Below, in pieces: positions 46,559 to 58,553 of a DNA stretch of 64,000 bases (its first letter is position 1; each line of letters starts with the position of its first letter). The stretch comes from Hormiphora californensis (taxonomy: Eukaryota; Animalia; Ctenophora), in contig CM035358.1 of assembly GCA_020137815.1 (NCBI GenBank), forward strand, positions 1,860,001 through 1,924,000. Reading direction: 5' to 3'. The notes under the pieces were generated by a model. The model was given only the letters and a program-made list of their open reading frames with translations, was not told where the DNA came from and searched no databases. The translations under genes were made by a program, and so were the position numbers.

Positions 46559-48712
46559 TCACGTACAACATTTGTTCTCTCTTACTGGGGGCGGGGCACT
46601 GAAGGAGAGATATATTGGGAGAGATATAGGGTAGAGAGAAAGAGGGGAGAGAAAGTAATATAGAGGAAGAAAGTAAGAGAATGATTGACTAACCTGATTG
46701 GTGTAGCTTGAATCTCTGGAGCTGGCGTTGGTTGTTTGTTTGCTAAGTAACGCTTGTAGATTTCCCTCGTCAAGTTTTCAAAAACCTGTGAAATTGACAA
46801 TCAGTAATAGAATCATAATCAGAATAAGGGTTAGACGACTGTGTGGGCTTCCAGCTTCCTGAAAAACCAGGAGCAAAACATTTTGAATACCAGGTCCATG
46901 CCGCGCGACGGTACGTGCGGGAAGCGCGCGAACTTGAGTATTTGTGTGGTCTGGCGCGTTCCAGACATGATCTCCTAACAAATGTGTCATTGGCAAAATC
47001 ATGGAAGAGAGGGGGAATCACACCCTCTCAAAAAGTTTCCATTTTATTACACACATCTCTGATATACATCATAGCACTTAGTCTGGAGATTTTAAATGTA
47101 TCTCAGTTTTTAAATGATTCAAGTGGGCAGATATACAACAACTGCTTACAATTAGTAATTCTCAGAATCGAGAAACTCTTCCCTTACCTTATCAACATTT
47201 TCACCACACTTTGCACTTGTCTCAAGGAACTCAATACCATAGTTAGCCGCTAATTCAGCACCTTTCTCGTGTGATACCACCCTTTTAAACTGCTTATCAG
47301 ACTTGTTGCCGACCTGAAAATGTGTGATCAATTTTAGTTCTGTTTGTGATATAATACGGCGATTTGATTGTACAAAAAAAACAGGCTACATAACAAGAAG
47401 AACAACCTCAGTCAGTATAAACTATAGAGCTGTAAATAAATATTAGGACTTTCGGAGTGGTCGCCCAAAGTTTAATACTCAGTACTATACGAACAATAAC
47501 GCAGTTGGACAGTTGTTAACCAAACTTACCAAATATATCACGACATCATTTGGTGCACTTTTCCTAACATTATCCACCCACCCAGAGATTCTCTCAAAAG
47601 TTCTCAGCTGAGTTATATCGTATACAAGAACAAGACCTGTAGCATCCCGGAAATACCAACTTGCCATGGAGTGAAACCTGAAAATATGTATGGGATTCTT
47701 TTTATCTACTGTAATGAGTAATCTATGTATCATTCCTTCTCTTTTGCTCGCTATTTCCTCCCTTTCTTCTCTTTTCTTTCTTTCTCTCACTCTCGTTCTC
47801 ACTTCCCAGGCACTCAGCTTATATTGGCGTTGATACAATGTGTGTGGGATACAGTGTGTGGGTGATGACAGACGGGTGGGAAGAAAATCAAATAAAAGAA
47901 GAGAGATACGCTTGGACTGTAGGTGTGTCTTTGGAAGAGTAATAAAATGGGATAGAGAGAGAAAGTATACGCTGCACATGTGTGTATGATAGGCCATATC
48001 TAGTGATAATGAAATCAGTCGACTCTAAAACAATCCCAGTAATCTATTCAGTAATTAACACAAGTTAATAATAATTAAGGTTAACATTCAAGTTTGGTGA
48101 CGCAGCCACCCCTAAGTACACTAGCTGCGCGCAGTGCGGCTAAACGAAGCCCGCGAAGCAGGCTGAGTGTATTATAAAATAATAGGGGATGTCATCACCA
48201 ACATTCAAGTCACCTTTCCTGTCCAGCAGTATCCCAAATTTGAAGCCGAATTGTTTTGTCGTCAATATTAATATTCCTGAAAGAGAAATTCTCGTTACAA
48301 GAAAAAAAAGAAGAGAGACCGGTCATGGATGGTGGTCCCCCTTTGTCTCTCCTATTTAGCCGCGATTCAAAGAGCGTACTCCGAATAAGTCGTAATTTGA
48401 ACTACAATCATGGAGTCATGAAAATTTGACGACAAGAAATTCTAGGACGCTATGAATCTCTCTAATTCCCTACGTACGAAATGGCATTTCTACATTGATT
48501 AGGTACTGATTAAAAAACTACGAGACAGTCTAAATAATAAGTTATGGATAAAATTAAACTTACCTGCATTTGAAATCTATTCCAACAGTACTTAGCAGAC
48601 TATCACTGAAAGTACTCTCTACATACTGAAGCAACAAACTCGTCTTACCAACTCCACTCTCCCCAACTGTCAATATCTTAAACGATAGATCAAACTTCTC
48701 GTCTGCTCTCAT
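46559..48712 (-). CDS. Rab family GTPase (Rab8/10/26/37-like clade), 6 exons
   Basis: [43 protein letters not shown] and a C-terminal ...NKCCT* prenylation motif. Confidence 0.9.
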
Positions 48713-48829: not shown

Positions 48830-49250
48830 ATGAGTGTTATCTAGATGTGTTATGAACTATGTAATACTGCTGTGATGGGCCGGACAATGCAACTGTTGTA
48901 CAGCCGTGAGCCGAGCACTTTCACATCTTTTATCGCAGAACATTCAAACAATTTGTGGGATGTTGAATCTGGGAGTTGGCCACATTCAAGACAATTGGGA
49001 ACTGTGAGTGATCGCTCGTATCTCAGGTAACTGAAGCTGAAGTCTTGAAAACGTAAGGATCTGCCATGTACAAAGTCTAAGACCTGAGAGGAGTTCTGTC
49101 GGGACATGTTTCTTGGAACTAAGGGGAAATCCAAAATGGCTCCTGAGTTTATAATGCTGGCTAGCTCTTCTTGAGAGCGAATAGGAAGTATGCTGAAAGG
49201 GTCTTCTCGAGTCAAATCTGTCAATCTACCTATGAATGGTTATTTTACCT
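48830..49250 (-). mobile_element. Non-LTR retrotransposon 3' fragment (C-terminal CCHC region)
   Basis: CLECGQLPDSTSHKLFEC resembles the C-terminal Cx2C...Hx4C motif of LINE ORF2 proteins. Confidence 0.55.
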
Positions 49251-50178
49251 TAAAGAATATTTAACATTTTTTCGTGGACTGGTTTTTGGAGCTTCTAGCG
49301 AAAGTGATGCTTTCTTGTTTCTTGACCAATTTCGTCAAACAAAAACTTTACGGACTCACAAAAATATGCTCTTTCCGATGATATGTGGCTTTTTGCCGAA
49401 AAGTGAGAGCAAGTGGGGACTGTCGCGGCTCGTGCGCAAATACGACGCCGTGCGTGAAAAGGGGGGTGACAACTTCAATAATCCGTTAGGGTCTGGTTAG
49501 GGTTTGGTTTCGACTTTCGGGTTTTCGGTAAGGGGCGGGCTATTGATTTATCGTTAGTTTATCAATTTCTTAAAATCTTAAAGCAGAATTTCGAAGCATC
49601 CAACACTCAATATTAGGTATCGCTTGTGCTTTCAAAACTTCGCAAACTTCAGTACTTTTAACTTTCTAATTTTGTTTTGTCTTATGGTTTTGTCTTTTGA
49701 TTGACACCATTTAAAGCTACGTTTTCTGCTGGCCCAGTGCTGGGTTTGAATCCTTATTTTGCCATTATCTTGCTTTCAAATGTTTTGGCAATAAAAGCTA
49801 TGTGTGTCCAAGAGTCAAATTGAAATAGCCACCTTTTGTCCCTCTTTTATCGCACTGTTAGGGTATTTGACCCTTGAACACAGCTTTTAGGGCAAAAGCA
49901 TCTGAAAGCAAGATAATTGCAAAAGAAGGATTCGTTTTCAGCAGAAAATGCAGCCTCAAAAGACTTCCATCAAGACTTGAAAAGTGTCAAGAACAGTTGG
50001 AAAAAGTTGTAAAGTAAAATTTGGAGAAGTTTGCAAAGTTTAGAAAACACGCGAGACCTGATTATTATTATTATTATTAAATCTATATAATTTACACAAT
50101 TTAATTGTATAAATAAGCCCCTTTTTTGTGGGCAAATACGGGTTACCGATAGATATTAAAGTTCATTGAAGATACCCA

Positions 50179-51141
50179 TTATGAAAAGTCTATCACCCCC
50201 CTCCGTACCCGGAATTGGCCTCCAGGATTCGAGTCCCTCAACTCCTTCAACGTTTGGTGGAGTTCTCTCCTCTCACTTCTCTCTGCGAAGGACATATCCC
50301 TTGCAAGATATACACCGCAGTACGATTCTAACTGTTTTAGCTGCTTTGCCTTCTGGAGAAGGCTTAGCAGCATTTCCCTACTCTGTAGCTTCACAATCAC
50401 TGGTCTCTCCCTTCCTCCCCGTTTCAAACCCACCCTTCTAGCTTCTATGGTCGGTTTCTCGCCTAGCTCAGCAAAAACATTTTCCACTTCACCCTTTAAC
50501 ACAGATTCAGTTTCATCCTCACATTCCGGTAGACCAAACACCATCAGATTTTTCGATCTGTCTGGGCCGGTATCAACTGGCTTGTGCGTGACCTTTTCCA
50601 CGGCTTTCTGGATCTTTTTCGATGCAAACGCAGTCTTACAATTCTGTGTGACGACTGCAGAGAAAGTACGCAAATCTTTCTGTACCGTCTCGGTAACTCG
50701 ATTCAGTTGCTCGCCCTGAAGCTCAATAACCTGCTCTTGTAACTTGACAGTTCTTCTCAAAAGATCATCACACTCCACTTTCAACTTCTCCTCCTGCTCC
50801 TGCAACTCGAGAGATTTTCTCAACAGTTCATCTCGCTCCTCTTTGAGTTCATCTCGCTCCTCTTTGAGTACCATCTCAGGGGATTTCTCGGCAAAGATAT
50901 GACGCTCAAAGTGTTTTAGAACAATAAACGTTGCAAAGCTCATTTCTTCAATCAGTTGCTTTAGCTCATATTTCGTGTGTACAGAGTTGATTTTAACTGA
51001 TGACGGTATTTCAGCATCGTTGAAATCTGGACTGCTCCTGCACTTTTTTAAGACATTGCCAGCGACAGAGCTCTCTCCACTTTTGGCCAGCGTCAGAATC
51101 CGTCTTACAGCAAAGTCCAATTCTCGTTGTTCGTCTGCCAT
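50179..51141 (-). CDS. LINE (CR1/L2-group-like) ORF1 protein, 320 aa: coiled coil plus RRM-like/C-terminal domain
   Basis: Heptad EERDELK repeats, then RSKNLMVFGLPE, RVG...RPVIVKL and GVYLARDMSFAERSERREL, typical of LINE ORF1p. Confidence 0.8.
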   Translation of the reverse strand: MADEQRELDFAVRRILTLAKSGESSVAGNVLKKCRSSPDFNDAEIPSSVKINSVHTKYELKQLIEEMSFATFIVLKHFERHIFAEKSPEMVLKEERDELKEERDELLRKSLELQEQEEKLKVECDDLLRRTVKLQEQVIELQGEQLNRVTETVQKDLRTFSAVVTQNCKTAFASKKIQKAVEKVTHKPVDTGPDRSKNLMVFGLPECEDETESVLKGEVENVFAELGEKPTIEARRVGLKRGGRERPVIVKLQSREMLLSLLQKAKQLKQLESYCGVYLARDMSFAERSERRELHQTLKELRDSNPGGQFRVRRGVIDFS

Positions 51142-51190
51142 TATCTTACGTTCTGCCCTTTGGGGCCGTTACATCGCCATGTTGCTGAAA

Positions 51191-51223
51191 CTCAAATTAA
51201 TTTGTTTAAAGTAGTGCTGAAAA
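51191..51223 (-). other. Spliced-leader-like sequence TTTTCAGCACTACTTTAAACAAATTAATTTGAG
   Basis: 32/33 identical to 56385-56417. Resembles the ctenophore SL exon 3' end from memory. Not followed by GT, so it is not an SL RNA gene. Confidence 0.75.
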
Positions 51224-52678
51224 AAATCTGTAGGTATTGAGATGCTTTTTGGGGTGGCGCGCGGCAGGGCTATTGTTGGTTGGGTTTGCCTTTAATTCAA
51301 AGTTTATCTGGTAGGAAATGTCAAGGCCTAACCCCAACCCAAACCCCAGCCCTAACCCTAACCCCACTTTAGCCCTAACCCTAAAAAACCGTTTGTCAGC
51401 ACTCACGAAACACCCAGATTTTAACGCTGGCCGTCATTTGGGGGTGACAACTTCAAAAAATCCGACTAGGAGGCAAGACACTGTGTTGAGACGCGCACCA
51501 TTGCGACGCGCATTTTGGCTTTGCGACGCGCATTTTGGCATTGCGACGCGCACATGAGATAGAGACTTGAAATTTGGAGGTTACGAAGATCTTGCTAAGT
51601 TCTTCCGAACCTCCAAATTTCAAGTCTCTATCTTATCAGGAACCGGAGATATGACAAATTTTGTTATTTCAGGGGGGTGACAGTTTCAAAAAATCCGACT
51701 TTAACACGCTTCGCCGAACGGATTTTCTATAAGGAAACGTGCACGGCTTTGTGGTTTCTGTCACAGTTAGCGCCGCACACAGATTTGAGAAATAAGCGTC
51801 CTGACATCATATTTCATCAAAACAGTTATTTGATTTGATGAAGGAGCGCACTCGAGCGTTGTCAGGCGTTGTCCGTGACGGACGGACATTTAGTTAACCC
51901 CCACGATCTGCTGATTTCTAAACCCTGAATGATCTTTTTAGCACGTGCGTGCTAAAAAGATCATCCCGGGTGGATGCCCTTCGGGCATCCACCCGGGCAG
52001 GGAAAAAATCGTGTCATTTTTATTTTTTTCTTCTTTCATTTGAAAAGTGCTGCCTTATCGGGGGCCAGCAGCCTGCAGCGTTTGCCAATTCTTTCACTGG
52101 AATGGGGCAAATGATCGAACCCAATGTGAATGAGACTCATCGCGATTAACTCTTCATACGGTTACCCCCTTTCGCTCCTCAGCAGCTTCTCCTTGGCTGC
52201 TTAAAAGTGATGCCAATCGGTGTTGGGGTTGTTTTATTTCACTGGAGAAGTGGTTCCTGGACCCACTGGAGTCTGGACCCTGAATTTCTTCATCCATATG
52301 AGGTCTAGGACCCTCTTTTCCGGAGAAAGAAGCGAGAAAAATGGAAACTAGCTAAAAAAGGGAAAATGACACGATCCGATTTTTGATTGAGATTGCCGAC
52401 AATAAAAAGTTTAGAACTTTTAATAATTAATTTATGGGTTCGGAGCTAGTGCAAGCGATCTTGTTACATGAGGAACCTCGAAAATGTTCAGGTCTACACC
52501 GCGTGATCTGTTCTAACCAATCACAGATTACAGAACAGCTCTTGCGTTCACACGTGACACTCTCGCCATACGAGCTGTTCTGAGCAAACCTGAATATTAT
52601 TTTTACCTATGCTGATCTTGATAGCCGATAGATATTCATCCAAGCACTAACCCTGTTTAGGAAAACGATGTAGTTACA

Positions 52679-55600
52679 ATGGCGGGAAAACGGTTCAGGG
52701 TTTCCTGGAAAGGAAGGCCTGGTGAAAGCAAGATGATCCAGGCAATAGAGTTGGTAAATGATGACTTTGAGCAGCTTCTTGGGCAGCTGAAAGAGAAAAT
52801 TCGGAAAAAGTACAAAATAGATAATGAACGGGAGTTCTCACTCAGCTACCAACCAGAAAGCACAATCCATCAATCCATCAACCTAACAGACATAGATGAC
52901 GAAGATGACATGATGGATGTGTGGAAAGGGGATGTTGAACAAAGGATTTTTATAAAATTCATAGAGGACCCTTTTTTACAAAGTGGAAGGTCATCCGTGC
53001 TGAGTAATCCAAGTTGGAGTGGTACTGATGTAACTGGGAGGAGTAGCCCCTTCCAGCCAATAGAACATCCTTTTCCAGGAGGCAGTAGTTTCTCTCCCGT
53101 TATACCAACTAACAAGGTGATTCCGGAAATACCGGTAACAACACAACACCCAGTACAAGTTCCTACACCTCAGCTAGCCGGTGCTCACCCAGTACAACCT
53201 AGTTATAATCTCCACGGAGTTCCTACACCTCAGCCAGATCACGCAGTACAACCTAGCTATGATCATCTCCACGGAGTTCCCCAGCCAGATCGCCCAGAAC
53301 AAGGTGGTGATGTGAGCATGGTATGCGAGGAGGATGCAGCCCATCTTTCTGACATTGAAGTTATACCTGATACTGACGTACCTGGCGATGAAATACCTGG
53401 CGATGAACTAACTGAGGCAGCCGGTAACTCATATTTGATCAAGTCCTTTTTTCCTACTTTTTCCCAGACTTGCAGGAAAAGGGGGTGTGAACACTTGAAA
53501 AAAATTGACTTTGCATTTTTAGGAACTACAAACCCGACCACTGACGAATTGTTATCAAATTTTCAGGGGAAACTGAAATGGATGCCACTGATTATGTTAC
53601 TGATGCTGTTACTGATGCTGTTACTGATTCTGTTACTGGTTCTGTTACTGGTTCTGTTACTGGTTCTGTTACTGGTACTGTTACTGGTTCTGTTACTGGT
53701 TCTGTTACTGGTACTGTTACTGGTACTGTTACTGATTTGGTGAGTAACAAAGAACCAGTGACTGATGATATGGAGCCTAATGCAGCGACAGAAGAACTAG
53801 AGGAAGAAAAGAAGCGTGATCCGGACTCACTGAATGATGGCTTGGATGACTGCGAGACACGTGTGGATATTGTTGATGATGAAGGTGACCAATTCCATGG
53901 TAAGAATGTTTCCTGAGCATCAGTTAGCCATGTTGTTCCAAATATGATGCAAATAAATCCATTGGAAAGAAATAATTACGGCGTTGCACCTTCCGCTGAC
54001 GTCCCCCAGAGATATCGCAGCTAAGTGGTCATGATTTGATTTGAAAAAGGATAAAAATCGATATACAATATATAAAGACAATATCCCGGTTGGCTCCTAT
54101 TGACGGAGTGTCAATATAGACGGAGCGCTTACACCTCAAAATACTATAAAAATTCACACACAGACAGTTCTCGCACACTACGGACAAACAGACTAATATA
54201 GTATACTTTTAATAGCTAAATAAAAATAGAAATAGCTATAAGGCTATTCACATTAGACTAGTTGGTTAATTTTAATTCACTCATTAATGATAAAAATAAT
54301 TACTTACCCTTGCCCATTGTTCCTAGTCCCCCACCCCTCCCCCATGATCCCCATCCAAAATTTAGTATACCGTCGGCTGTTGGTAGAGATTTATATCAGA
54401 TAGAATTCATATCTGTGGTGGGGGCGCCCGTCCTGTTTCAAACTGTTCAACACCACTCCAAACCTCATATTTGAGTACAATGTAAAGAATGAGCTATGTG
54501 TGGAGGTGGGAGAGATACCGCAGAAATAAAGGAAGAGAAAGGGACCCCCCACCACAGAGGCGAATTAAGTTGTGTCATGTAAGGCGTTCCAGAGATGGTC
54601 TTTCAGTTTGGAGGAAAATAAATTGTGTTCGGTTGTATTTCTCAGTTCTTGAGGCAGTAAATTCCACTCAAGGTGGCAGCGGTAGAAGTAACAGTTTTTG
54701 AACAGGTCCACTCTGGGTTGTTCAATGCATATAATGTTCGTTCTGTCTCGTTTCGTTTGTTGTCTGGTGGTGCGTCTGAAATGTGATTCCGGATCGTATT
54801 TTTGTAGGAAAGATGGAAATTTTATAGGAGATGTTTCATAGAATATTTTATGGAACAACTTAAGATCATTATATTGAAATTTTTGAGTCATTGGGAGTAC
54901 GTCAATCTCCCTGAGTTTCTTTACATACGTTTCTAAATTATAACTAGTGTCTGTTTCACCTAATATCCATTTTGTGGCACGTTTCTGCAAACTTTCAAAC
55001 TTAAGCAGACTTGAATCACTTACTGGTCGCCATATTTGGCTACAGTGTTCGAACAGGGATCTAACTAGACTAATGTAGAGGTTCTTCTTCTTTAGGGGGC
55101 ATTTAACTAATACTCCTACACGCTTCACCAGTCCTAATCTTTGAGAAGCTTTGGAAACAAACGATTTCAGTTGTCTTCCCAAACATGTTTCTAATTTCCC
55201 TAACGAGGTCTACATACGCATTATAAATATCATTCTTACCACTATGAGACCTAACAAATTTAGCCCACCTCCTAATGTCGTTCGTACCGAAAGCCACTAT
55301 AACTTTTCTCACTTCCAATTCAGGTTGGCTCTCTCTAAAGCCTTTCAACATGTCTATTGCAAGACTTCCCTCCCAATCTCTGAATGGCTTGCATAGCCTC
55401 GCACCCGATACCGACACATTTATCAGATCCAGGTCCTCGTTCACCCACTTCGTCATGGAAGTTCCCAGGAGTAGAGTCCTTGGAGAATTTGGTGCCGATT
55501 GTGGAGCGGCGGTAGAAAATCCAGAGACATCTGGCTGGTATCCATCAACCATAGGGGGTACAGGCGAAAATGTCATCTGAGACACCACAGGGGACACCAC

Positions 55601-58553
55601 AGGGGATACCATAGGCTGAGGAACCACCGACTGAGCTAGTGGTGGTGGTGTAGGAGCGATAGGTGATGTAATAAGCCTCTTCCGGAATGAGAGGGCATAC
55701 CTAACCCCTTGCTCAACCTTGTTGGCCCGATGCTTGAAGTGCTCCTGGCACCCTTTCATCATGGTGTAAGCCTCTCCGTCTTTCAGATTGATGGACAGTG
55801 ACGGTCTCATCCTTCCGTCCCCAAGGTAGGGGATGAAGTCCACTGTCCCTGGCGACCCGAGATTAACGACTGTTATAGAGGAAGAGTCGTCCAATGTGTC
55901 CTCAAAATCAGAGTGGTAGTGCACCCCTTCTCCTCTCCTATACCTGGTTACCAGACACGAGTTGTATCCGCAGCCCAACTCACTGTTCAATTTCCCCATT
56001 AATCCCATGATGTTGGGGTACTTGGCTATATCCACAGGAGGCAGTTGAACTTTACCCCATCCATACCCGAGTCCTGTGTTTGACAACCAGGTATTTTTTT
56101 GGTCAAAGTCTTCGACCTCCCAATGTAACGATTCTGAGTCAACTTCAGGGACTCCCCTCCCATGAAACGTAACATACTTGCTGGGATCCTTTTTCGGAAC
56201 CCCAAACTTCTTTCTTCTCTCCAACTCCTGTTGCGCCAGTAGTATGATTCTCTCCAACACAGGGGACGACACACGAGTAAAGATTTGGTCGAGGGGAGTG
56301 TTGTCTAGGTCCATATTTGAGGTATCCTAGCAGCCCATCCTAAAATCCATGCTAAAACAGGCTGATTAACCCAAGGACATTGTCCTCAAATTAATTTGTT
56401 TAAAGTAGTGCCGAAAATAGATGCACTATCTGGGACGTCATGTACTCCCAAAGTGTGTCAGAACTGTCACCGAGAAACATTTCTGGCAGTACGTCTCGGG
56501 CGGTTCATCTATTATAATCACCCAGCTGGGACATCTCTGGAGGAGTGAGAACGTCCCCGGAAGATCTCCCGGAGGTGCGAGAGAGGCCGTAATTACCAAT
56601 TATATGCAATGCACTTTTGGTAAATGTACTTAGCTGATACTATTATTTATATGCTGACATATATGATGAGGTTTTGGCTAACGTTTAAACCTGTTTTCAG
56701 ACGCAGAATTATCCTTCTCTGATAATGAAAAAGAGACCGACAGTGAAAAAGAGACCGATGGTAAATTCCTTGATGACATTGATGAGGATATTAGTGGACA
56801 GGCGGAGGAAATCGGCGAAGGTATGAAGAAGAAAATCACGGTAGCATTTTAGGATGGGGCATTGCCACCACAGAATAATATAATTCGAATGGCTCATTTC
56901 CCCAAAACAATACACATCCTCAATAGATAGTTTTACGTAACATACTGTTTTAATGATTACATAAGTGCACTGCAAAATGGTAGATATTGAATTTTATCAA
57001 ATGTTATTACTGGGTTTCTGGTTTGTTTAACAGTATTTATTACAGTTGCAAGTCCAGATAAAATGCATGTCGTGGAGGTAAAAGAAATACCAAGAGAAGA
57101 GCCCAACCTGGATGAATGGTAAGCACTTAAAATAATTCCGGATTAGAATCTGGTTTGTCTACATGTCTTCATTGCATTACTAGTACTAGTAAACCCGTTC
57201 GCCCTACGGGCGAATTTCGCGGAAATGGTAGCTGGATTAGGAAACACTGACATCACCAGTCGAACTGTTGACATGCACTATCCCTACGGCAACGTAAAAG
57301 GAGCTCAGGCGGGATCGCTGCGAGTTTTAGAACTTCAGAAGATGATCAGGCGATCAAAATGATAAAAAAACTTGCAGATTCCTCGCATTTCGTCAGATTG
57401 TGGTCATCTGCCTTAATCTTTGAGATTGATCATCGGTTCTGTTAATCTCCAACGTCTTGTTCGTTCTCTCTGCACTTCTCTTGGTGTTGCTGCATTTTAA
57501 CTCCTCAGTGTATGGAAAAGTAGAGAACGGCGGTCGGATCTTGCATGAGTAACTCCAATTGTCGCTGTCGTATATCAGCAGTAGTTGAAGAAGGCATATA
57601 ATTAGCTGGAACAGTGACGCAATACAAAGCAAAATCAGATGCACGTGCAACTGCAGTACAATAGCAACAATCCTTGGTAACGGCTCCCACCCACTCCAGA
57701 TGTAGTAATCCACCTCTAAACCTGCACGTGCAAAATGCCATATTTGGTAAAAAACGTCACACAGGATTTCCCTATTTGCTTTAACTAGAAAGCCCATTGA
57801 AGTCCTACAACAGCTCCCCCCACCCGTCTCAACCCCTCACTCTTTGTCTCTCCATGTCGGGGTAAAGAATACGGAGGTTAGTACTTGTAAAGCGCTGGTG
57901 ATAAACATCAAGGGAAATCCCGCTGAATAACATGTAGAATCAGGTGATAAAGATCCGTAGAATTGTAGTAGCTGTGTAGAGAATCAATGGGGTACGTAGG
58001 TAGAAAAGCTTTTGCAATCATGGCGGCCCCAGCAGTAGATCACAAAACACCACAGGAAAACCACAGGAACACGAAACAAACAACCAACAACATGCACGTG
58101 CAGTATCCCCCCTCCAATACCCCTCCCAGGGCACCTCCTTGGCAACCCCCTCTATTTGCACGTGCTAGGATAGGTCATCATACTCCTCACCACGCCACGC
58201 ATTTGCATCTTTTAATTAAGACTAGAGAGCCCAGGCAAAAAACCCAAAACTCCTCTCGCCCCCTACTGAATCCTCCCACCCCTTTCGAATCCTCTCAATA
58301 TCTATTGACTGCTCTCGTCCCATATTATTCAGCACCCTCCCTCCCCCGCCCCCGGGCTATGTTGACCAACTCACCCCATAATCCCCTTACAGCCAGTTGG
58401 AGTCCTACAACAACCCCCCTCCCCCCCCCCCCCGGTCTCTATGTCTCTCTCTCCCCCTCTCCGTCTCCGTCTCTTTCCCTGTCCCCTCTCCAATGGATAG
58501 TCTTCATCTATCCCCTTCTCTCTTTATCCCTCTAACCCCATCATTCCCTCCCC

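Follow-up and report, generated by a model that had tools for sequence, protein, structure and literature searches.

An AlkB-type dioxygenase fused to an SGNH esterase in the first open reading frame of ctenophore LINE retrotransposons

Why would a retrotransposon carry the fold of a nucleic-acid demethylase within its first open reading frame? The question is raised by a stretch of 64,000 nucleotides of the Hormiphora californensis genome (Ctenophora; GenBank assembly GCA_020137815.1, contig CM035358.1, positions 1,860,001 to 1,924,000), the whole of which is called the window here. In it an open reading frame (ORF) at 55103-56314 had been described, from the sequence alone, as an AlkB-type dioxygenase fused to an SGNH esterase in the ORF1 of a long interspersed nuclear element (LINE). 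That first-pass annotation also suggested that the LINE family may carry its own demethylase, either to protect or unblock its template or to counter methylation-based silencing. The fusion is no chance chimera, it is a conserved and widespread ORF1 architecture of ctenophore LINEs, and judging from sequence the family appears to carry its own AlkB-type domain as a conserved part of elements that encode a reverse transcriptase (RT) elsewhere. The ORF in the window is itself a truncated ORF1, organised as follows.

55103..56314, minus strand: ORF1 as present, 403 aa (P0001), with 385 genuine codons and 18 out-of-frame codons from the ORF2 tail
56204..56314, minus strand: N-terminal helices, residues 8-37 (predicted helices H8-14 and H17-37)
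55670..56194, minus strand: AlkB-type 2-oxoglutarate (2OG)/Fe(II) dioxygenase domain, residues 41-215, every ligand intact (Pfam, PDB profile, fold)
55484..55669, minus strand: Pro-rich disordered linker, residues 216-277, predicted local distance difference test (pLDDT) <50
55160..55480, minus strand: SGNH esterase, N-terminal part, blocks I-III only, block V with the catalytic His deleted

The AlkB-like catalytic residues pointed out by the first-pass annotation are all present (N118..Y125, H134-x-D136, H195 and R205..R211), comprising the metal triad H134, D136 and H195 and the Arg pair R205 and R211, and so are the Pro-rich linker and the SGNH blocks I-III behind it. In the hidden Markov model search 2OG-FeII_Oxy_2 of Pfam covers residues 73-203 of P0001 above its cut-off (E 1.4e-10, 42.2 bits against 31.2), whereas Lipase_GDSL_2, on residues 291-385, stays under its curated cut-off (E 1.4e-4) because the esterase domain is cut in this copy. 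Residues 1-379 of the homologue P0003 align to 56314-55160 at 89%, and the linker is the least conserved region in most pairwise comparisons. The N-terminal helices are probably, by analogy with the proteins described in PMC3905857, the multimerising coil typical of esterase-type ORF1. The window protein departs from the homologue alignment after residue 385, codons 386-403 being out-of-frame ORF2 tail, while the homologues (n=7, 37-89% identity) all continue 81 residues further to a complete SGNH domain; block V (Asp-x-x-His) is gone with an internal deletion. Hence, the earlier description holds for the fusion and fails for the ORF as a whole ORF1, whose genuine reading ends at codon 385.

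The identity of the first domain was analyzed with a profile built from 86 full-length ORF1s and searched against the PDB, which gave 59 matches at E<=0.01. Among these ALKBH3 is found at 2.3e-24, ALKBH2 at 2e-23 and E. coli AlkB at 3.9e-7, the ALKBH2/3 entries lying at 1e-21 to 1e-24 and an N6-methyladenine (m6A) demethylase at 0.008; neither ALKBH5 nor FTO is among the 59. The same profile also matches SGNH proteins, among them the ZfL2-1 ORF1 esterase (4c1b) at 2.7e-19. A single-sequence PDB search reaches just E 0.1 to ALKBH3. Concerning the structure, the P0003 model (mean pLDDT 87.4) superposes on ALKBH2 with Z 21.9 (root mean square deviation 2.3, 167 residues), followed by ALKBH3 (Z 20.3), SGNH esterases (19.9) and FTO (18.6). 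Foldseek likewise has ALKBH2 as top match (2.2e-11), and in a viral fold library viral AlkBs lead, namely plant RNA-virus and picorna-like virus domains. The domain is thereby predicted to have the AlkB fold, with a double-stranded beta-helix and a nucleotide-recognition lid.

A HMMER search over 1.84 billion representatives retrieved 143 proteins at E<=1e-10, rising to 532 at E<=1e-3; the 150 best of these were listed, and unrelated AlkBs may be present in the weaker tail. AlkB is present in 158 of the 161 proteins examined, SGNH in 127 and both in 124, and the 34 AlkB-only proteins (193-466 aa) are mostly too short for both domains. All five ligands (H-D-H-R-R) are kept in 151 of 157 active-site-spanning domains, out of 164 domains in total, and of the six exceptions two seem to be gaps at the ends of the alignment. 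They are invariant across the 86 full-length rows, at about 20-60% identity, and conservation peaks in the columns of the metal and 2OG ligands (97-99%), being far lower in neighbouring ones. In the SGNH domain the family-level values are Ser 98%, Gly 96%, Asn 96%, Asp 74% and His 95% (110-127 rows per column). Two AlkB stretches are found in six of the 161 proteins (P0088, P0098, P0112, P0145, P0170 and P0210), a tandem subfamily with ligands intact in both domains, with one member labelled Mnemiopsis leidyi. Three of these proteins were placed in the tree, where their duplicates fall into separate clades.

This domain pair precedes an ORF2 with APE endonuclease and RT in independent sequences. 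The window ORF2 tail is 95% identical to P0178 (1,134 aa, APE and RT by Pfam), whose start is identical to that of the window ORF1 in 34 of 35 residues, which ties the window ORF1 to its ORF2 on an independent contig; P0252 is an ORF2 with its own N-terminus. P0210, clustered with a Mnemiopsis leidyi protein, contains two AlkB domains, SGNH, APE and RT in one gene model. A metagenome scan yielded ten loci from 98 candidate stretches, seven of them LINE-like and three bacterial AlkB genes (L006-L008) that served only as outgroups or were dropped. In L002, L004, L005, L009 and L010 an ORF1 with a long N-terminus, AlkB and SGNH, plus a PHD-type finger in four of them, is followed by an ORF2 of 1,140-1,285 codons, while L003 (of the family of L002) and L001 stop inside the ORF2 start. 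Elements combining AlkB, SGNH, APE and RT are thus found outside the window in five contigs and one gene model. Behind ORF1, APE and RT are recognised by Pfam in P0178, P0210, L002 and L004, and by RT motifs in L005, L009 and L010. In the window, ORF1 does lie directly upstream of an ORF2 tail, as had been noticed, and the tail is of APE-RT type; this adjacency is produced only through the internal deletion and is not the original layout.

The RTs split in two groups (100/100 support, 30-37% identity), which, from their motifs and with a tree that contains no reference RTs, we tentatively take to be CR1-type (window) and Crack/Daphne-type L2 (L002 group). The ORF2 link is seen, among the 28 window-side rows of the AlkB tree, only for the window family, P0088/P0210 and L001. 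In the AlkB-bearing ORF1s no RRM was detected. As side observations on ORF2, the one of L004 (2377-6231) has a C-terminal tail with two inserted PHD fingers (Pfam 1.8e-12) and a Cys-rich N-terminal region, and the CR1-type ORF2 (P0252, P0178, P0180-P0186; L001 1910-2464) starts with about 150 hydrophobic residues and an NPGP motif, followed by APE. In this it resembles the 2A-like peptides by which ribosomes skip in LINEs, but lacks the acidic residues that usually stand upstream.

Between L002 and L005 the AlkB domain is 62% identical and the RT region 64%, against 30% for the region before AlkB, and for AlkB the proportion of nonsynonymous differences (pN) is 0.25 with the synonymous proportion (pS) saturated at 0.91; synonymous divergence is saturated in nearly all comparisons. 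The AlkB domain is therefore about as constrained as the RT. The AlkB tree divides like the RT tree, with the LINE lineages supported 98/97 and 100/99, while the joint separation of LINE AlkBs from four bacterial/phage outgroups is weak (88/64, long branches) and hence compatible with one as well as two AlkB acquisitions. The family is likely restricted to ctenophores. Members with a eukaryote label come from P. bachei (two proteins) and M. leidyi, all labelled relatives are ctenophore, and Ctenophora is named for four Atlas clusters, on 1-3 members each, most records carrying no taxon. No relatives were found among 28 candidate stretches of viral contigs or among five from prokaryote genomes, and phage and plasmid collections gave AlkBs at 25-30% identity only, so that the donor was not found there. 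The ESM Atlas feature neighbours of the isolated domain are phage and giant-virus AlkB clusters, which is a lead only.

Concerning the substrate, the acidic residue at the second position past the metal Asp (HxDx(D/E)) is Glu in 96% of 163 domains, the lid Tyr84 is kept in 91% and an aromatic at 86 in 97%. In E. coli AlkB the corresponding D135 is described as selecting adenine and cytosine, and FTO has Asn there (PMC2800194). Together with the profile matches, these features suggest that the domain is ALKBH2/3-like, and not ALKBH5-like as in orchid Gypsy elements, and hence that repair of 1-methyladenine (m1A) and 3-methylcytosine (m3C) on the element RNA would be likelier than m6A erasing. 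ORF1 proteins of LINEs assemble on the RNA encoding them, and m1A and m3C block base pairing and would stall reverse transcription. Our preferred reading, held with moderate confidence, is that the AlkB domain removes m1A and m3C from the element's RNA or single-stranded complementary DNA (cDNA) so that the ORF2 RT can copy it, a substrate to which homology points. The ORF1 protein would multimerise via its N-terminal helices and load on its own encoding RNA, which would keep the AlkB enzyme on its substrate; the enzyme would then strip these base-pair-blocking methyls from RNA or single-stranded cDNA, and the cleaned template would let the RT pass over 5-7 kb, while the esterase may target membranes or lipids, as proposed for ZfL2-1. 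As for the two roles proposed in the first-pass annotation, protecting or unblocking the template would fit the ALKBH2/3-type features, and countering methylation-based silencing, through m6A or 5-methylcytosine, appears less supported.

Several points weigh against this reading. The 2OG-binding Asn of ALKBH2/3 is mostly Thr or Ser in the family (Asn 9%), Ser takes the place of the Asn that follows the first Arg pair position (93%), and the window subfamily has Phe137 where ALKBH3 has Asp. This subfamily also shows Gly156 where 93% of the family has Arg, a residue that helps E. coli AlkB to bind damaged bases, its R161A mutant keeping the rate and binding damaged DNA about fivefold worse (PMC2800194). 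The fold Z for FTO (18.6) is close behind the 21.9 for ALKBH2, and therefore fold alone leaves the substrate unfixed. The residue counts rest on proteins found by similarity, which favours conserved motifs. Finally, retrotransposition proceeds without AlkB in most LINEs, the other leader-capped LINE-like element of the window lacks the domain, and P0178, a family member, has lost both AlkB and SGNH.

A wider reading, which we consider unlikely, is that two deep LINE lineages share an ancient, possibly virus-derived ORF1 module whose catalytic AlkB, doubled in some cases, counters a defensive host methylation of the base-pairing face of retrotransposon RNA. If true, an early-branching animal lineage would have a restriction mechanism of a new kind that acts on RNA, and the elements would bring along an enzyme that cleans the template for reverse transcription.

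Among the alternatives, the one that survives best, unlikely as we consider it, is removal by the domain of an RNA mark written by the host (m6A, or programmed m1A/m3C), so that the LINE transcript escapes epitranscriptomic surveillance, a role proposed for the orchid Gypsy enzyme. The ALKBH5-like protein of Phalaenopsis Gypsy elements is reported to demethylate m6A in vitro (PMC9289625), the retention over more than 100 divergent clusters and the tandem duplication in five long ORF1s would suit a host conflict, and the FTO superposition points the same way; against it stand the absence of ALKBH5 and FTO from the profile matches at E<=0.01 and the A/C-selecting acid kept in 96%. It is improbable that the domain is mainly a nucleic-acid-binding or chaperone module, with catalysis secondary, filling what esterase-type ORF1s miss. 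Such ORF1s are described as having no structural RNA-binding domain (PMC3905857), AlkB folds bind single strands and an RRM was not found here, yet conservation is far higher at the metal and 2OG ligands than on the surface, a sign that catalysis is under selection. We assign the same low probability to an enzyme acting on DNA, i.e. the target site, the new second strand or methylated genomic copies, where it would repair alkylation or lift DNA-methylation silencing. Although the best structural match, ALKBH2, is a double-stranded DNA repair enzyme and the PHD fingers of the second lineage suggest chromatin contact, no TET/JBP resemblance is seen among the matches listed, ALKBH3, which prefers single-stranded DNA or RNA, scores as high as ALKBH2 in the profile, and the host should presumably own nuclear repair. 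Lower still we place demethylation of the spliced-leader cap region or of host tRNAs, which would help the RT to read across the leader or adjust translation: tRNA and mRNA are substrates of ALKBH3 (PMC9401043), and the window copy and five of the seven LINE-like loci start with the ctenophore leader, but so does the element without AlkB at 50179-51215, and base methylation of the ctenophore leader was not found in the literature examined. A single-copy chance chimera or assembly artefact is very improbable and, for the AlkB-SGNH fusion, rejected. In its favour, the ORF1-ORF2 junction of the window copy is unbridged among the contigs listed and may be private or a misjoin; against it, 124 of 161 proteins carry both domains, the pair stands ahead of APE-RT elsewhere, P0178 fuses the same ORF1 start to a matching ORF2, and an empty site exists.

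The preferred reading, template cleaning, concerns an element whose window copy is unable to move alone, i.e. is non-autonomous, with its AlkB domain intact. Besides ORF1, this insertion shows the following features.

54033..56415, minus strand: whole LINE insertion, 2,383 bp, 5'-complete and internally deleted
56385..56410, minus strand: ctenophore spliced-leader sequence, 26 nt, at the element 5' end
56315..56384, minus strand: 5' untranslated region (UTR), 70 nt from the leader to the ATG, by sequence
55160..55161: deletion junction, at least 3,078 nt lost, 0-1 nt microhomology
54565..55160, minus strand: ORF2 tail, last ~198 codons of a CR1-type APE-RT protein, stop included
54046..54564, minus strand: 3' UTR, an inverted repeat forming a long stem with arms 54404-54437 / 54533-54566
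54033..54045, minus strand: 3' tail, a short pentanucleotide repeat where loose ends of other copies fall (54032-54034)

Contigs from public sequencing runs were mapped over 53800-56800. One contig of run X5 represents the empty site, joining 54007 to 56416 through 30 letters similar to the left flank, and loose contig ends are found at 54032-54034 and 56417; the empty-site contig hence sets the insertion bounds at about 54033-56415. No target-site duplication is visible around these bounds. The insertion has no long terminal repeats (LTRs) and shows a 3' repeat tail and an empty site, as for a discrete APE-type LINE insertion. The 3' part of the Hormiphora leader given in PMC8527503 recurs letter for letter in the 26 nt at 56385-56410; such a match was found in 0 of 100 shuffles, and this stretch has very high summed contig depth with loose ends on both sides. 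The open frame downstream of ORF1 spans 54565-55209 and matches P0252 residues 942-1141 at 88.5%, and the 3' UTR stem folds at -57.3 kcal/mol, a value without shuffle control. Summed contig depth, which gives no copy number, is higher for the ORF2 tail than for ORF1 in all three organism-labelled runs, which fits 5' truncation of copies. In the RNA runs the best share of the element covered is 0.06, too little to show expression.

The loss of at least 3,078 nt implies a full element of about 5.5 kb or more. Past the junction at 55160/55161, contigs of all four runs carry on into the ORF1 residues that P0003 predicts, those of three continue on the ORF2 side, and no contig piece among the pieces listed from the four runs bridges it, so this genome may be the only one with the junction, or the assembly may be misjoined here. 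A further internal deletion is seen in run X5 (from 55113 to 55908, with 28 letters on the short side), and P0178, on an ENA contig of 3,894 bp, is a third, with the first 36 ORF1 codons fused in frame to ORF2. With AlkB and esterase missing and ORF2 otherwise intact, P0178 is possibly an ORF2-only derivative. Internal deletions thus recur in the family. Splicing as the cause of the deletion in the window copy was rejected, since the ends inferred from loose ends are not GT..AG.

It should be noted that the LINE is inserted inside a palindromic element (window ~53975-54032 and 56416-56600; arms 54002-54035/56511-56544 and 56416-56438/56491-56513), possibly a miniature inverted-repeat transposable element. 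This element seems to be intronic in a plus-strand gene with coding stretches near 52661-53916 and 56640-56820.

Full-length ctenophore LINE copies start with a genome-encoded spliced leader. Among the seven LINE-like loci the leader starts five, L004 being cut by the contig end and L001 showing none.

Leader positions: window 56385-56415 and 51191-51221; L002 1-34; L003 ~20-56; L005 ~150-193; L009 ~125-164; L010 ~45-81
Window ~48850-51221, minus strand: second leader-capped LINE-like element, with a coiled-coil ORF1 of ~320 codons without AlkB and a decayed zinc-finger-like ORF2 tail fragment

The ORF1 of this second element, which has no Pfam match, is by its motifs presumably RRM-like, and the element adjoins exons at about 47150-48400 that we take, also from their motifs, to be Rab-GTPase-like. 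The LINE RNA is likely trans-spliced before retrotransposition, and the terminal AG of the leader could serve as an acceptor renewing the same 5' end from any upstream promoter. The leader-capped copies give a hint of how LINEs come to be expressed in ctenophores, and some of the genomic leader copies counted in PMC8527503 (718 and 491) may derive from them.

Compared with known systems, the closest architecture is the type IV ORF1 of CR1/L2/RTEX elements represented by ZfL2-1 (PMC3905857, PMC4120745), which shares the N-terminal coil, the loose linker, the C-terminal SGNH esterase with its Ser, Gly, Asn, Asp and His, and an APE-RT ORF2 behind ORF1. The ctenophore elements differ in having AlkB, in one or two copies, ahead of the esterase, and one lineage adds a PHD finger. 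The main text of PMC4120745 places esterase ORF1 in vertebrate subgroups only and contains no occurrence of AlkB, 2OG or oxygenase. No AlkB in a LINE ORF1 was found in the full-text literature searched, Repbase, subscription papers and the supplements of ctenophore genome papers lying outside that search and possibly noting the domain; orchid Gypsy elements (PMC9289625) are the sole retrotransposon precedent found there, and AlkB has 0 occurrences in the main text of PMC12477816 and PMC6338049. Both the Phalaenopsis Ty3/Gypsy and the ctenophore elements keep their own AlkB-family dioxygenase. The former are LTR elements described as having a separate ORF recently captured from a host ALKBH5 homologue, whereas the latter are non-LTR, with an ALKBH2/3-type domain fused inside ORF1 that is old and diversified over two RT lineages.

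The AlkBs of plant RNA viruses (Flexiviridae, Closteroviridae and one potyvirus; PMC2553587) are likewise compact domains that form part of a longer protein encoded by an RNA-replicating element; they resemble ALKBH2/3 and keep the lid aromatics, but they belong to replicase polyproteins, not to a LINE ORF1, and have no esterase partner. For them, lid residues were used to predict repair, and RNA-preferring repair was then shown (PMC2553587). With human ALKBH2 and ALKBH3, which repair m1A and m3C, the ctenophore domain shares the Fe ligands, the Arg pair, the lid Tyr and the HxDx(D/E) acid, at 21-23% identity only, with the 2OG-binding Asn mostly replaced, and the human enzymes are stand-alone host genes. 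An enzymatic architecture of coil or PHD, AlkB and esterase is hence added to the known LINE ORF1 types, and a non-LTR retrotransposon that keeps a nucleic-acid demethylase fold under what appears to be RT-like selection converges in this respect with plant RNA viruses and with the Gypsy elements of orchids, and it becomes testable whether retrotransposition is limited by methyl groups on the RNA template, be they damage or marks set by the host.

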